Part shown: positions 57,900-64,000 of the stretch, one piece after another
How the letters are laid out: each line of letters begins with the position of its first letter
How positions within the stretch are numbered: the first letter of the stretch is position 1
NCBI GenBank assembly: GCA_029856145.1
Contig: JAHQWK010000001.1
Span: 352,001 to 416,000 of the forward strand
From: Promethearchaeia archaeon
GTDB taxonomy: Archaea > Asgardarchaeota > Lokiarchaeia > Sigyniarchaeales > SOKP01
Direction of reading: 5' to 3'
DNA length: 64,000 bases
Notes under the pieces: model-generated
The model's input: only the letters and a program-made list of their open reading frames with translations
The model's database searches: none
What the model was told of the DNA's origin: nothing
Program-made: the position numbers and the translations under genes

Positions 57900-59066
57900 A
57901 TGTGTGATACTCTAGTTTCCCTTGGAAATTCAACTGAAGATGGAAGTGTAATTTTCGGTAAAAATTCGGATCGCCCTTTTAATGAAGTACAATTAATCAC
58001 TTATTCTCCTAGAAGGAGCTTTAAAAAAGGAGATAAATTGAAATGTACATATTTAGAAATTCCTCAAGTTCCTGAAACTTATGCCACTTTAATGAGCCAA
58101 CCTTATTGGATGTGGGGTGCAGAAATGGGTACTAATGAGAATGGGGTTGCAATTGGAAATGAAGCCATATATACTCATGAACCATTAAGAAGGATAGGAT
58201 TATTAGGCATGGATTTATTAAGGTTAGGTCTTGAACGAGGAAAAACAGCTAAAGAAGCAATGGAGGTTATAATCGATTTATTAGAAAAATATGGGCAAGG
58301 AGGTGGTTGTGCATATGATGACCCGGGTTGGATGTACCATAATTCATTTATAGTTGCAGATCCTAAAGAAGCTTTTGTCTTAGAGACTGCTGATAAATGG
58401 TGGATTGTTGAAAAAGTCAAAAATGTGCGTTCAATTTCAAATGGTATTAGTATTAGAGGCAAAGGAGACTATAGAAAGAAAGGAATAATTGAACATGCTA
58501 TTGAAAAAGGATATTGTAAAAATGATGATGATTTCGATTTTGCAATAACTTTTTCTGGAACCCCAATTTCTGCTATACCTTCACCTTATTCCAGAGGAGG
58601 AAAATCTACAATATTACTGAGAGAGGACATAGGTAAAATCACACCAAGTTTAATGATGGAATTTTTGAGAGAACATCAAGCAGGAATTTGTATGCATGGA
58701 GGTTTTGAATCAACAGGTTCTCAAGTTTCTCATTTAAGAAAGGAGAAAAAATCAATTCACTGGTTTACAGGAACTACTCTTCCATGTGTCAGTATTTATA
58801 AACCTTATACTTTTCCTATTGAAGGTCAAAAATATTATAACCCTGGTCCTTATCAAATAGTAAATTCTGGATGGTTTTGGTGCAAGCATACAAAATCTAA
58901 ACCGATACGTAAGAAAATTGAACTTGCAAATATCGAAAAAACTATTATCTCTAGAGTTAATGATTTGATAATTCAAGATGACAAAATTTCAGAAGATAAA
59001 TTCAATGAAAAAATCAAAAGGTTAAATTTAGAAGCATGGAATAAGTCTTTTAAGTTAATAAATTAA
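57900..59066 (+). CDS. C69 family dipeptidase, secernin-like (Ntn hydrolase)
   Basis: MCDT N-terminus, GKNSDRP, WMWGAEMGTNENGVAIGNEA, GMDLLRLGLER. Confidence 0.9.
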   Translation: MCDTLVSLGNSTEDGSVIFGKNSDRPFNEVQLITYSPRRSFKKGDKLKCTYLEIPQVPETYATLMSQPYWMWGAEMGTNENGVAIGNEAIYTHEPLRRIGLLGMDLLRLGLERGKTAKEAMEVIIDLLEKYGQGGGCAYDDPGWMYHNSFIVADPKEAFVLETADKWWIVEKVKNVRSISNGISIRGKGDYRKKGIIEHAIEKGYCKNDDDFDFAITFSGTPISAIPSPYSRGGKSTILLREDIGKITPSLMMEFLREHQAGICMHGGFESTGSQVSHLRKEKKSIHWFTGTTLPCVSIYKPYTFPIEGQKYYNPGPYQIVNSGWFWCKHTKSKPIRKKIELANIEKTIISRVNDLIIQDDKISEDKFNEKIKRLNLEAWNKSFKLIN

Positions 59067-59236
59067 CTATAAATTTACCTCCTAATGTTTTTCTTCTTCA
59101 GTTTAAAACTTTATATAATAGAAAAGATAAATTCAAGCACTTTTTAAAGAATTCATAATAATCAAAAAAACTTAATAGTTTTGGAGTATTCTACTTATTA
59201 ATTTGTTAAGATTAAAAGGCTTCTAAGGATTCAACA

Positions 59237-59530
59237 ATGTCATTGAATAAATTGGATATTTTAGGTATGGAAGGAGTTATTTCAAACTATAAACGTGGGC
59301 GCCATACAATACACCAGAAACACTGTATCATAGTGTTCTCTAATATAAAAACAAGAAAAGATGCAAATAAACTTATAGGGAGAACAGTTTCTTGGAATAC
59401 TATTGCAGGTAAGGAATTGAAAGGAGTAATTTCTCGAGCACATGGAAATAATGGTGCTGTAAGAGCCCACTTTAAAAAGGCTGGAGTTCCTGGGCAGGCT
59501 TTAGGAAAAAAAGTAAAAATTATTAAATAG
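59237..59530 (+). CDS. rpl35ae: Ribosomal protein L35Ae (eL33)
   Basis: GVISNYKRG, GVISRAHGNNGAVRAHF, PGQALG. Alternative start at 59267. Confidence 0.92.
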   Translation: MSLNKLDILGMEGVISNYKRGRHTIHQKHCIIVFSNIKTRKDANKLIGRTVSWNTIAGKELKGVISRAHGNNGAVRAHFKKAGVPGQALGKKVKIIK

Positions 59531-59689
59531 CCTTCTAATTTTTATACTTATTCTTCTACTCGATTATATCTGGATATTACATGATACGAGAATAATATAG
59601 CTTTTTTTATGTTTTGGAATTTCTTATTCTTCTGATAAAGCGATTTTAAAGGTAATTTTTACTTCATTTGGTTGGGTTTAAGCATTAAT

Positions 59690-61663
59690 ATGACAGAGCA
59701 AGTATGTAGATTTTGTCACAGTTATGTAAAGTTAGCTTATTATTGTGAAGAATGTGGCTCCAGTTGTTGTTCTGAATGCCTCCATGAAAAAAAAGTGGAT
59801 TTCTTCATTTGTCAAGAATGCAAATCTAAAAACATAGAAATTTTAAATTCTGAAAATAAGAAAGTTTGTAAGGACTGTGGATCGGAAAATGTTGTTAAAG
59901 TTAATCAACGCTTAAAATCCTGCCCAAAGTGTGATTCACATCAAGTTATTAATATATATGAAAAAAAAGAAGAATTAGAAAAGAATTTTTTAGAATTAAT
60001 TAAAAATACACGTTTGTTTGTTAACCCTTTAAAAGAAATTCTTGATAAATTGTATTTATTTCAATCAAAAATAAAGGAAGTAAGGGATCCTCCAAATAAA
60101 TATTATCATTTTCCTCAAATGGAATCAGATTTATTAGCTCTTTTTGAGCTATTTAAATATATTCAAAATACTTTATTTGAAAAAGTTAATGTTCATTTTC
60201 ATCAAGTAAATCAAAATAAAGAATATTTCTTTGATATTTACACCCAACCTAACTCAAATATAAATATCATTGAGGGAATTTTCGAAAATCTATCACGAAG
60301 TTATAATTCAATTGAAGAGTTTATAAAAATCAATTTAGAAACATTTAATGATAGCTTTGAAACGTTTAAAAAGAATCTACACTTTATAGATAAAGTTAGT
60401 TATTATTTTAAATCATATAATAAAATACTTAGACTCGCAGAAGGTGAAAAACCTGTATATGCTATTTATGCTAAATTAACTAATGGTTTAAATTCACATG
60501 ATAAATACAAGAAAGATAAAGGAATTTTGTTCATAACTAATTTTGACCTTTCATTTATTCATAAATATGGAGTAAAGAAAAAGAAAAAGGAATTAATTTT
60601 CAAAGCTCCTGTTCAAGATTTAATAAAAATAAGAGAAAAAGGTAAAGTTTTCAAAAAACTCTATATTGAATTCACCTATGGAAAATACGAATTTACATTA
60701 CCATCTAAAGCTGTTTCTAGAGTAATTGAGTATATTCTTTTAGCGAGATCCTTTGACGATACAACAATACATGATGAAAAAACCGCAAAGAAACTTCAAT
60801 ACATTGATTTAGATTTAAATGACTTAATAAATTTCATTGAAGAAAGTATTAACTCGTTTTTTAGTATAAAATGCCAATATAATAAAAGTTTTGAAAATCT
60901 AAATCATCATAATAGGGATTTAGCCCACCCTTTTGGTGTTCACCCCAACCAATTACCTAATATTTCATCTCGAACACCTTCTCAATTTCTCAATCCCCAA
61001 AATAGTGCTCAACCTTGGTTTAGCTTTCCAGTAAATTCAAATTTATATCAAAGAATTAATAATTCCCCTTATCCCCCACCTAATCCTGGTCAATCACCTC
61101 CACTTATCGGTAATCCTCAAATACCGAACTATGATAAGAATAATTTCTTCTCACAAAATCTCTATAATCTAGATCGTTTTCAAAATTATAACCCACAGAG
61201 AATAAATCCGAATAATTATTTAAATAATAACTTAAATCCACAGATTCAAAACCAAATAAGAAATGATCATTATAATGAGAATGATTATTTCTTAAATAAG
61301 GAGGCCATTTTCCAGGATTACAATAGAAATCATTTATCTGACATGTTTGATTCAGAATATATTCCACCAGACAATTCTTATAGATATAAACAAAAATTGT
61401 TCAAACTAGATAAAGAAAAACATAAGAAAATGCTTGATTTAGATAAAGAAAGATATAGTTTGAAAGAAACTTTGAAAAAACTTGATAATAAATTTGATCA
61501 AGGAATCATATCTGAAGTAGATTATTTTAAGACTTTTAAAAACCTCCAAAAAGAAATTTATTTAATTGAAAAAAAAATTCAAAACTTACAAGAAAATATG
61601 GAAGAGGTCGAAACTCTCAAAAGAAACAGTAGAAATTTTGATAAAAGGCGATTTTATACATAG
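59690..61663 (+). CDS. Multidomain protein: Zn fingers, coiled coil, PH/GRAM-like domain, Pro/Asn/Gln-rich region, Vps23-like steadiness box
   Basis: Six CxxC pairs; GILFITNFDLSF beta motif; low-complexity SPYPPPNPGQSPP; C-terminal ERYSLKETLKKLDNKFDQGIISEVDYFKTFKNLQKEIY. CDS is secure, domain calls are by eye. Confidence 0.7.
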   Translation: MTEQVCRFCHSYVKLAYYCEECGSSCCSECLHEKKVDFFICQECKSKNIEILNSENKKVCKDCGSENVVKVNQRLKSCPKCDSHQVINIYEKKEELEKNFLELIKNTRLFVNPLKEILDKLYLFQSKIKEVRDPPNKYYHFPQMESDLLALFELFKYIQNTLFEKVNVHFHQVNQNKEYFFDIYTQPNSNINIIEGIFENLSRSYNSIEEFIKINLETFNDSFETFKKNLHFIDKVSYYFKSYNKILRLAEGEKPVYAIYAKLTNGLNSHDKYKKDKGILFITNFDLSFIHKYGVKKKKKELIFKAPVQDLIKIREKGKVFKKLYIEFTYGKYEFTLPSKAVSRVIEYILLARSFDDTTIHDEKTAKKLQYIDLDLNDLINFIEESINSFFSIKCQYNKSFENLNHHNRDLAHPFGVHPNQLPNISSRTPSQFLNPQNSAQPWFSFPVNSNLYQRINNSPYPPPNPGQSPPLIGNPQIPNYDKNNFFSQNLYNLDRFQNYNPQRINPNNYLNNNLNPQIQNQIRNDHYNENDYFLNKEAIFQDYNRNHLSDMFDSEYIPPDNSYRYKQKLFKLDKEKHKKMLDLDKERYSLKETLKKLDNKFDQGIISEVDYFKTFKNLQKEIYLIEKKIQNLQENMEEVETLKRNSRNFDKRRFYT

Positions 61664-61743
61664 AATGTTGTTGTTGAGTTTTATGCAGAATCTGCATTTT
61701 TTTTTTATCTTATATTTATATTTTTATTAATATATTACATCAT

Positions 61744-62763
61744 ATGGATAAAGAGGATGGACCATTTACTACTTTAGTAGGAAGTTGGCCTTTAAGTAAT
61801 ACATATAACAACATGGTAAAGGTCTTCACTGATTTAATTCAAATGGGTATCGATTTTCCATGTTACCCTCAGCTTTTATCCATGACTTATCAATTTTTAT
61901 CTCCTTTATCTAAAATCATTCCTCAATTAGAAGAAATCAATGAAAAATTTTATTTATATGAGGAATTTGAAGTACCAAAGGAACCCATTGCCCTTGAATA
62001 TGGAAAATTTATTATTAATTTTTTTAATGAACATCCAGATCTTAAGAAATCAATTAGGGGTACAAAAGCTTGTTTAACTGGACCCTTCACTTTAACCTTT
62101 GAGACTATATTGAAAAGCTCTATTGCTAAAGGCTTAAAACCAATAATTTTCGAAGAACCACGAGCAGTAATGGTAGATTGGATTGTGGATAAGTTTGCTG
62201 AAATTATAAAACAAATCGGAGCGGCCTATAGTGATATGGGAATAGATATTATTTCTTGTGATGAGCCAATTCTGGGATTGTTAGTAGGAAGGAAAATTTT
62301 GTTTCATTCAGAAGATTTTATCATTAAAACTATTAATAAAACAATATCTGGAATAAAAGGATTACCATCAATACATGTCTGTGGCAGAATTAGTCCCTAT
62401 CTACGAGATATTCTTTTAAAAACAAATGTGAAAATTTTAGATCATGAGTTTAGTACAAATGAAGAGAATTTTAAGGTGTTTGAGAAAAGGCATTTCCAAG
62501 GAACTGATAAATTCTTAGCATTGGGAACTGTTGAATCTAAGTTTGTACCCATTAAAGATAAGAAAATTGATGCTTATGTAGAAAAAGTTGATTTTCTTAA
62601 AAGATATATCAAGAAAGGAATAGAACAATATGGTAGAGAGAATTTAATTATCAAGCCAGATTGTGGTTTCTACCCGTTGAAAGTTTTCGGAGAAAAAGAT
62701 GGGTATGAAATAGCAATCAATAAAGTGAAAAATATGGTCCTTGCTTTGAAGGAATTAAAGTAG
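61744..62763 (+). CDS. Core (single-barrel) cobalamin-independent methionine synthase family
   Basis: TLVGSWP, TGPFTL, DEP, Zn ligands HVC, E and PDCG. Confidence 0.85.
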   Translation: MDKEDGPFTTLVGSWPLSNTYNNMVKVFTDLIQMGIDFPCYPQLLSMTYQFLSPLSKIIPQLEEINEKFYLYEEFEVPKEPIALEYGKFIINFFNEHPDLKKSIRGTKACLTGPFTLTFETILKSSIAKGLKPIIFEEPRAVMVDWIVDKFAEIIKQIGAAYSDMGIDIISCDEPILGLLVGRKILFHSEDFIIKTINKTISGIKGLPSIHVCGRISPYLRDILLKTNVKILDHEFSTNEENFKVFEKRHFQGTDKFLALGTVESKFVPIKDKKIDAYVEKVDFLKRYIKKGIEQYGRENLIIKPDCGFYPLKVFGEKDGYEIAINKVKNMVLALKELK

Positions 62764-62822
62764 TTATTATTAAAATTGATTTAGATTAAATGCAAAAAGT
62801 AAAAGAAATTTATAAAAAAGAT

Positions 62823-63473
62823 TTATCCTTCCAGTTCTTTACGAAGTTTATCGATCTCGTCTTTTAGTTGAACTTTTGATTTAACTTCAGCTTCCTCTTC
62901 TTCAAGATCATAATCTGGTATATATTGTAGATCATCAGCAGGAATTTCAGGCATGTCCCCTCCTTGTTCTAGAAGCATTTCTGTTTCAAGTTTATTTAAT
63001 TCTTCTGTAACATCAATTGCTAGATCAATTTCTGGATCACCACCTAAAATATCAGCTGCTTCTTCAATTTCTGCAACATATGCCTCAGAATCTTCTGCAA
63101 TTTCAGCAACCTTAGCTGGCGATGCCTTTGTAGCGATCTCCTCTAATGTATCTCGAATACCCCCGAAAACATCACCTGTTTGAGATATTAGCATTCCCTC
63201 TTCTATCGCTTGAATTTGTCTTTCAATCTTTAGTCGTATATTATTACTACGGTCAACTTTCGCTTGATATGCCTTATATTGTACTAAATAGGATTTTGCG
63301 CGATCTTTTTCGCCTCGTTTTAATGCTATTTTTGCGTTTTTTCTGCTAATCTCAGAACGTTTATTATAATTTCTGTTCATCAAATTCAATTTATGGATAT
63401 GACCTTTAGCTTTAGTAACCAAATTTTCCTTTTCTTTGCTTTTACGTGGAAAGAGTTTCTTTTTTAACCCCAT
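62823..63473 (-). CDS. ESCRT-III protein, Snf7 (Vps20/32/60-like) family
   Basis: Basic N-terminal hairpin (AKIALKRGEKDRAKSYL..KAY..KIERQIQAIEE), acidic C-half, MPEIP, terminal amphipathic helix. Confidence 0.85.
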   Translation of the reverse strand: MGLKKKLFPRKSKEKENLVTKAKGHIHKLNLMNRNYNKRSEISRKNAKIALKRGEKDRAKSYLVQYKAYQAKVDRSNNIRLKIERQIQAIEEGMLISQTGDVFGGIRDTLEEIATKASPAKVAEIAEDSEAYVAEIEEAADILGGDPEIDLAIDVTEELNKLETEMLLEQGGDMPEIPADDLQYIPDYDLEEEEAEVKSKVQLKDEIDKLRKELEG

Positions 63474-63625
63474 TTTATCATTACACCATTTAGAACTTTA
63501 ATTTTATATTATCTGATTTTATGAATTAAATAATGTTTCTGACTTAAAAATTTAATATTGTTTAATATAATATAATAAAATAATTCTCATCAAAAAAGTT
63601 TAACCTAGACCAATATTTGAGCACC

Positions 63626-64000
63626 ATGAAAAAAATCATATTAGATTTTGAAACCAAGAGTAAAAATCTCAAAGAACTAGTTCAAGAAGCTTTGAATAGA
63701 AATTTTATAAACTATTTTGTTTCTCAAGAAACTTTTAAAGAATTTGAGAAAATTGAAAGGATAAATCTTTATTCCAAAAATCCTAATATTCCCGTCAAAT
63801 ATGTGGTATATGATGATAAGGATATATTAGTAGAAAATTTAGCTAATGAGAAATTTATTAATAAGAATTTTGGATTCTTTTTTGAATTAAAAACCAAAGA
63901 AGATGAACAAGAAATTATTGAATTAGCAAAAACTCGATATGTAGATTTTATTATTGTTTCCGCTAAAGATTGGGAAATAATACCATTCGAAAACCTCATT
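63626..64000 (+). CDS. 3-dehydroquinate synthase II (archaeal AroB'), 3'-truncated by window edge; absent from ORF track
   Basis: ATG at 63626, open to the window end. Ends ...FIIVSAKDWEIIPFENLI, matching the DWxIIPxEN family signature. Confidence 0.85.
   Translation, partial: MKKIILDFETKSKNLKELVQEALNRNFINYFVSQETFKEFEKIERINLYSKNPNIPVKYVVYDDKDILVENLANEKFINKNFGFFFELKTKEDEQEIIELAKTRYVDFIIVSAKDWEIIPFENLI

Follow-up and report, generated by a model that had tools for sequence, protein, structure and literature searches.

The window analysed here, a stretch of 64,000 nucleotides from a Promethearchaeia archaeon (contig JAHQWK010000001.1), carries close to its end a gene for a protein combining zinc ribbons, a helical region, a PH-fold domain and a C-terminal steadiness box (SB), which we call Znr_CC_PH_SB after the published family discussed below. 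The gene occupies 59690-61663 on the + strand and encodes 657 amino acids (aa) plus a stop from an ATG start, with an alternative in-frame TTG upstream at 59672. [quoted passage not shown] A preliminary description of this DNA, made from the sequence alone, had given the protein 658 aa; the open reading frame (ORF) stands, and the earlier figure includes the stop. All its landmark positions match the ORF translation: GILFITNFDLSF begins at aa 278 (nt 60521), SPYPPPNPG at aa 459 (nt 61064) and ERYSLKETL at aa 587 (nt 61448). Taken as a whole the protein matches no NCBIfam family, returns chance-level matches alone with phmmer against the PDB, and has no UEV, UQ_con or EAP30 match in a Pfam scan. 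A first AlphaFold2 (AF2) run on the full length, with 29 close sequences, gave a model with no Foldseek match at E≤1e-3, from which only the short local similarities with Vps23-C and with a zinc ribbon could be used.

Domain architecture of Znr_CC_PH_SB

The SB occupies 61376-61633 (+ strand; aa 563-648) and is modelled by AF2 as a hairpin of two helices (563-603 and 609-648; predicted local distance difference test score, pLDDT, 85-92). In Foldseek this model superposes on yeast Vps23-C (2f6m_C) with a probability of 1.00, a template modelling score, TM(target), of 0.87 and a root-mean-square deviation (rmsd) of 0.7 Å over 57 columns. Among Pfam families, Vps23_core (PF09454) ranks first for aa 560-657 (E=6.6e-5, 23.3 bits); it also matches 15 of 29 family members at E≤0.01 (best 5e-4), and its best match genome-wide is the Znr_CC_PH_SB gene. 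Furthermore, a profile of the family's C-terminus run against 177,635 PDB sequences placed chains of the yeast ESCRT-I headpiece in all of the top seven positions, comprising Vps28-N (2f6m_B, 2f66_B, 2p22_B and 2caz_B) and Vps23-C (2f66_A, 2caz_A and 2p22_A). The likeness of the C-terminus to the TSG101/Vps23 SB, previously aligned by eye, thus exceeds chance by Pfam, by PDB profile and by superposition. A reading of this segment as SHOCT (PF09851) was dropped, since aa 560-657 gave no match to that family at E≤1, in searches whose HMMER filters remove most matches above about E 0.1, and Vps23_core ranks first.

The PH-fold domain, of GRAM/GLUE type, lies at 60446-60754 (+ strand; aa 253-355) and comprises seven strands followed by a C-terminal helix, with conserved Lys-rich loops between beta1 and beta2 and between beta3 and beta4. 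The shallow AF2 run with 29 close sequences had left aa 244-359 below a pLDDT of 50. With the region realigned to 100 sequences, drawn from distant genomes and loci and from cluster representatives, AF2 modelled aa 240-408 at a mean pLDDT of 88.3. Foldseek found 23 PDB matches to this model at E≤1e-3, the best being the PH-like domain of Lam6 (E=1.5e-4), and among the 50 matches listed all but Rtt106 are annotated as PH or PH-like. In VIA-align the closest structures are the GRAM-type domains of MTMR2 (PH-GRAM; Z 13.5, rmsd 2.5 Å, 106 aligned) and Lam6 (Z 13.3), and the GLUE domain of human EAP45/Vps36 (2hth_B; Z 11.8, rmsd 3.2 Å, 105 aligned) scores 1.7 below the best of these. The PH-clan Pfam matches among family members are to bPH_3 (best 3.4e-7), GRAM (3.9e-4), Vps36 GLUE (7.8e-3) and PH_SLA1, and weak matches to Vps36_ESCRT-II occur in 7 of 41 members. 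Run with hmmsearch, the PH-region profile matched no PDB sequence, and fold search was needed; an ESM Atlas feature search returned PH-like clusters with scores of about 0.8, which we take as a lead only.

The N-terminus (59690-59953, + strand; aa 1-88) is a zinc-binding module of three Zn-ribbon-like units with six CxxC pairs at aa 6, 19, 27, 41, 60 and 78, whose cysteines are invariant or nearly so in phylum-wide alignments. Pfam gives weak DZR, A2L Zn-ribbon, TFIIB Zn-ribbon and B-box matches here; AF2 models beta-hairpins (pLDDT about 68-79), and the module superposes on the Rpb2 zinc ribbon over 41 columns (Foldseek probability 0.99). A reading as an E3 ligase (RING/B-box) was set aside, as it rests solely on weak B-box similarity (E=0.013) and on database names. 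The helical region that follows (59954-60421, + strand; aa 89-244), the "CC" of the published name, is modelled by AF2 as helices 89-132, 143-181 and 191-244 with pLDDT mostly 83-94, and a fold search with it found generic or designed bundles alone and no specific family. Behind the PH domain, AF2 and the alignment place two conserved helices (60776-60895, + strand, aa 363-402; helices 363-371 and 377-402, pLDDT about 85-95) with the conserved motif IEESINSFFS. They lead into a disordered linker rich in Asn, Gln and Pro (60896-61375, + strand; aa 403-562; pLDDT below 50), which is variable in length and sequence, poorly conserved and far shorter in relatives of 500-536 aa; aa 400-560 contain 21% N, 13% P and 9% Q. 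The domain reading of the preliminary description (six CxxC pairs as Zn fingers, a helical region, a PH/GRAM-like segment, a Pro/Asn/Gln-rich linker and an SB) is therefore borne out by profiles, by composition, by the folds and by the literature considered below.

Family membership and distribution

A homology search retrieved 263 full-length homologues at E≤1e-3. All those with a named source come from Asgard metagenome-assembled genomes (labelled Promethearchaeota or Lokiarchaeia) or from marine sediment metagenome, and in the databases they are mostly unnamed or called "B-box zinc finger protein". The 90% cluster of P0092 joins KKK44603.1, which is Lokiarch_16740, with a UniRef entry named "SB domain-containing protein". 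Aligned end to end with Lokiarch_16740, the window protein is 56% identical, and there are no large gaps outside the linker.

The family is already in print. Makarova et al. (2024, mBio, PMC10936438) described cog.011556, "Znr_CC_PH_SB", as a family in which three Zn ribbons are combined with a coiled coil, a PH domain expected to associate with membranes and an SB. In their view it has no eukaryotic members, was probably ancestral among Asgard archaea and is likely to be part of ESCRT-I. Table S2 of that paper includes a 650-aa member in Lokiarchaeum GC14_75, which we equate with Lokiarch_16740 because length and gene position agree. The published gene order in GC14_75 runs RidA, ArgE, PepD (C69), L35Ae, Znr_CC_PH_SB, MetE, a Vps20-type ESCRT-III on the - strand and 3-dehydroquinate synthase (Makarova et al. 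2024, PMC10936438), and both order and orientation are identical in the window between 56110 and 64000. Earlier, Caspi and Dekker (2018) had tabulated Lokiarch_16740 as an Asgard homologue of Vps23/TSG101 and Lokiarch_16760 as an ESCRT-III of the Vps20/32/60 type. The legend to Supplementary Fig. 8 of Hatano et al. (2022) names RING, CC and PH domains among the ESCRT-I-like proteins of Lokiarchaeota GC14_75, and, according to the same legend, a canonical UEV-Vps23 is not known for that genome.

The window protein has the Zn ribbons, helical region, PH domain and SB of cog.011556 and agrees with it in sequence and locus. It is thus almost certainly the orthologue of Lokiarch_16740 and a member of Znr_CC_PH_SB. 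The feature is real but already known, another orthologue rather than a discovery, and the statement in the preliminary description that the architecture had not been recognised as described fails in view of these publications. What holds of that interpretation is the domain reading and, with it, the union of an ESCRT-I-type assembly element with a Vps36-like membrane module in one chain, which the fold and profile tests and the literature support. Its designation of the locus as a non-canonical module does not hold, as set out in the next section.

The architecture is widespread in the phylum. A Znr_CC_PH_SB match occurs in 200 of 301 sampled genomes, including 65 of the 68 from the window's own family and 70 of the 76 from the family with short-linker proteins of 500-536 aa. 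Among representatives of 50% clusters that are at least 450 aa long and match the PH profile (n=61), 52 have a C-terminal SB and 50 have at least four CxxC pairs, nearly always six, in the first 130 aa. The 500-536-aa forms belong to the f9 clade (loci L028-L037), with a very short linker and an Arg-rich SB, and several of them apparently begin at GTG or TTG, or else before the first ATG.

Outside assembled genomes, the stretch 59000-64000 is represented by 57-99% of sampled words in ten metagenome runs, from five studies of marine or subsurface sediment; this DNA may derive from three of them. Two runs labelled metatranscriptomic, although probably DNA, contain contigs of 230-340 nt with at least 99% identity inside the Znr_CC_PH_SB ORF, L35Ae and MetE, which is too weak to count as expression, and no RNA dataset containing the stretch is listed.

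The ESCRT-IIIB neighbour, its linkage and the ESCRT set of the genome

The Snf7-type gene at 62823-63473 (- strand) encodes an ESCRT-IIIB (Vps20/32/60-like) subunit and is the orthologue of Lokiarch_16760. It exceeds the Pfam Snf7 cut-off (E=2e-9, 37.8 bits vs 27.3) and matches the PDB entries 9fn1_U, "Vps20/32/60-like protein (ESCRT-III)" (E=7.8e-99), and Heimdall ESCRT-IIIB 9ftl_A (E=2.2e-5), so that a close relative has a solved structure. In this 97% complete genome we found two Snf7 genes, the other of which adjoins Vps25 and Vps22/EAP30 on contig 22. The window gene is therefore an ordinary B-type subunit of Lokiarchaeia, not an extra or orphan paralogue, and while the convergent Snf7-type gene was correctly placed from the outset, a non-canonical module near a stand-alone ESCRT-III is not what the locus contains. 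Between the two ESCRT genes, at 61744-62763 (+ strand), lies a gene for a MetE-like cobalamin-independent methionine synthase (Meth_synt_2 E=5.2e-8; NCBIfam methionine synthase models).

We surveyed gene linkage in 30 loci around homologues. In the window's own family, 14 of 15 loci have ESCRT-IIIB downstream and convergent within about 4 kb. The MetE-like gene stands between the two in eight of these 14 and is absent from six, where the ESCRT genes are directly adjacent, tail to tail; because of this adjacency, we regard it as a lineage-specific insert and not as part of the system. The convergent pairing also recurs in one locus of each of three other families (L024 in f2, L026 in f21 and L033 in f17), where the other neighbours differ. 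Since the own-family neighbourhood is collinear, only these recurrences across families carry weight. The proposed synteny with Snf7 thus held in the own family and in three others, but not in the f9 clade, L025 or L027.

Besides the two Snf7 genes, the genome encodes Vps28, Vps25 and Vps22, the last (EAP30) at C22:66545-67201, away from the Znr_CC_PH_SB locus. A search of the genome for UEV (PF05743) gave no match, but none was found in control genomes either, and the result is uninformative on absence. The host Vps28 (P0130, contig 8) exceeds the Pfam VPS28 cut-off and has an N-terminal hairpin. When its aa 1-100 were co-folded with the SB segment, the interface score ipSAE reached 0.74 (median of three runs), and the control, as the best of three, reached 0.00; the mark applied to this score is one that 58 of 80 solved complexes attain, as against 2 of 110 mismatched pairs. 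Contacts agree between runs by at least 89%, partner pLDDT is at least 81, and the predicted interface joins Vps28 aa 12-45 to Znr_CC_PH_SB aa 603-628. The prediction supports binding, short of showing it. Modelling with host ESCRT partners, proposed in the preliminary description, thus gave a positive outcome for Vps28-N, the only partner predicted.

Three further proteins of this genome touch on the same subject. A 500-aa protein encoded at C2:17550-19049 (- strand; locus L047:5551-7050) is mostly E/K/P-rich low complexity with no Pfam family found, and its C-terminal 60 aa match the SB profile (E=2.1e-6); it may be another SB-tailed adaptor. At C31:5716-7086 (+ strand; locus L048:5716-7086) lies a gene for a protein of 457 aa that has an IFT52 GIFT domain at its N-terminus (above the Pfam cut-off at E=7.7e-12), continues through a stretch of low complexity and ends in a hairpin with weak likeness to the SB (domain E=0.18). 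The third, on C3 (locus L004:1477-3267, - strand; 597 aa), combines repeated winged-helix units (PCI, E3_UFM1-ligase-like and DDRGK) with Vps28_C at the C-terminus (Pfam VPS28, 24.9 bits vs 24.5), and agrees with the description by Makarova et al. (2024, PMC10936438) of multidomain Vps28_C proteins.

Proposed role and comparison with known systems

Considering all of the above, the best explanation is that the gene is a cog.011556 orthologue whose product probably acts as an ESCRT-I-type adaptor, in agreement with what has been published. For how it might do so we lean, with modest confidence, towards the following scheme, in which the domain folds, the family membership and the gene linkage are results of this analysis, and every binding partner and the membrane association are inferred. 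The protein would take the position of eukaryotic Vps23/TSG101, its C-terminal hairpin packing on the N-terminal hairpin of the host Vps28 to form an ESCRT-I headpiece, and this headpiece would connect through Vps28-C to ESCRT-II (Vps22/Vps25) and from there to ESCRT-III. The PH/GRAM domain, with its Lys-rich loops, would keep the complex on the membrane, and the long disordered linker would span the distance from the membrane-proximal part to the headpiece. For contacts with cargo, with ubiquitin or in self-association, the candidates are the zinc module and the three helices. That the gene repeatedly converges on that of ESCRT-IIIB fits joint use in one pathway.

Several observations weigh against a role in ESCRT-I. 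The Vps23_core score of 23.3 bits for aa 560-657, and that of 19.3 bits for the whole protein, lie under the cut-off of 26.8 bits, a gathering threshold that no family member shown reaches. The PDB profile matches are each marginal (E 0.012-0.14), and in a hhalign comparison of the SB profile with the family of the host Vps28 the hairpins align in register, with a probability of 9%. The positive Vps28-N prediction may be partly model memory, because yeast Vps23:Vps28 structures have been solved. As to linkage, no ESCRT-III gene occurs within 9 kb in any of the nine f9 loci or in L025 and L027, and the own-family neighbourhood is wholly collinear, unrelated housekeeping genes included, so that the linkage there is partly inherited gene order. 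In the literature searched we found no experiments on the Znr_CC_PH_SB family.

The same family could be wired differently. The SB might pair mainly with another SB carrier rather than with Vps28, be it an SB-fused Vps22, a free-standing SB protein, an SB-tailed multidomain protein or a second copy of itself, and the protein might then serve as an upstream cargo or membrane adaptor resembling ESCRT-0 or feed ESCRT-IIIB directly in the manner of CdvA and CdvB. Makarova et al. (2024, PMC10936438) indeed report that Asgard Vps22, and many multidomain proteins as well, have an SB fused to them, and at least one further protein of this genome, that on C2, has a matching C-terminal hairpin (E=2.1e-6), the match being weaker on the GIFT-domain protein of C31. 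Moreover, in yeast two-hybrid assays a Lokiarchaeota SB protein, for which we found no locus tag that would equate it with Lokiarch_16740, contacted both Vps28 and Vps22 (Hatano et al. 2022), and the conserved convergent adjacency is to ESCRT-IIIB and not to Vps28. Nevertheless, Vps28-N, the sole partner tested in silico, clearly passed above its controls, and the hairpin profile ranks Vps28-N and Vps23-C first in the PDB; we consider such alternative wiring unlikely, though worth keeping in view.

A more radical possibility is that the protein has no part in ESCRT at all, being a zinc-finger and PH scaffold with a generic coiled-coil or SHOCT-like oligomerisation tail, and that its proximity to Snf7 is gene order passed on by descent. 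The Vps23_core scores, all under the Pfam cut-off, would agree with this, as would the resemblance of the motif G-[IV]-I-S-x-x-[DE]-[YF] to many short helical tails, the conservation in the neighbourhood of RidA, ArgE, the C69 peptidase, L35Ae and DHQ synthase, none of them ESCRT-linked, and the missing Snf7 linkage of the f9 clade. However, a generic tail sits poorly with a segment for which Vps23_core is the top family and SHOCT gives no match at E≤1, whose seven best PDB profile matches are ESCRT-I headpiece chains in seven of seven cases, and whose model falls on Vps23-C at 0.7 Å. Nor does inherited order readily account for Snf7 adjacency in three further families that have not retained the other neighbours, and the Vps28-N complex was predicted at 0.74 against 0.00 in the controls. 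We regard this explanation as very improbable.

Within the ESCRT-I-type reading, a bolder and quite speculative version can be formulated, to which we give little credence for now. Znr_CC_PH_SB would be the working Vps23 equivalent of Lokiarchaeia, anchored to the membrane through its PH domain, perhaps binding ubiquitin or cargo with its zinc module, and coupling directly, not only via ESCRT-II, to the nucleating ESCRT-IIIB, towards whose gene its own is oriented in several families of Asgard archaea. A UEV-Vps23 was not detected in the genome search described above, nor is one reported for GC14_75. If true, this direct coupling would be a short route from ESCRT-I to ESCRT-III, comparable to CdvA-CdvB or ALIX-Snf7. 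More generally, Asgard ESCRT-I proteins bear on the origin of the eukaryotic ubiquitin-ESCRT sorting pathway, and this family, probably an ancestral one among Asgard archaea, unites the ESCRT-I assembly element and the Vps36-like membrane module in a single chain, as is already in print. To this the present analysis adds a PH/GRAM model of high confidence, a controlled in-silico prediction that SB and Vps28-N passed, and a count of the ESCRT-IIIB linkage, by which the convergent pairing extends past Lokiarchaeum-like genomes and is missing in one large clade.

Among known systems the closest is Lokiarch_16740 (KKK44603.1) itself, which shares the domain order, the 56% identity and the flanking genes, including the convergent Vps20-type ESCRT-III; the window protein is 7 aa longer and differs in linker sequence, and nothing of substance separates them. 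Crenarchaeal CdvA has a hairpin related to the SB, recruits ESCRT-III to the membrane and is encoded beside ESCRT-III (Makarova et al. 2024, PMC10936438). It is thus likewise an archaeal adaptor with a helical hairpin and a gene near ESCRT-III, but it contains a PRC-barrel and binds the CdvB winged helix through an E3B peptide, lacks PH domain and zinc ribbons, and showed no sequence match to the window protein. The window protein resembles Vps36/EAP45 in joining a PH fold and zinc fingers on a single chain, which yeast Vps36 also does. In contrast to Vps36, it has no winged-helix (EAP30) domains, its zinc modules are N-terminal and not inserted in the PH domain, and this domain is closest to the GRAM type of MTMR2 and Lam6, not to GLUE. 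Finally, it differs from Vps23/TSG101 in having no UEV domain for the binding of ubiquitin and P(S/T)xP, its N-terminus being instead a zinc module, a helical bundle and a PH domain, and no clear stalk of the kind shared with Vps37 or Mvb12, Vps23_core remaining below cut-off. What it has in common with Vps23/TSG101 is the fold of the C-terminal SB hairpin, a long, proline-containing disordered linker in front of it and the predicted packing on the N-terminal hairpin of Vps28.

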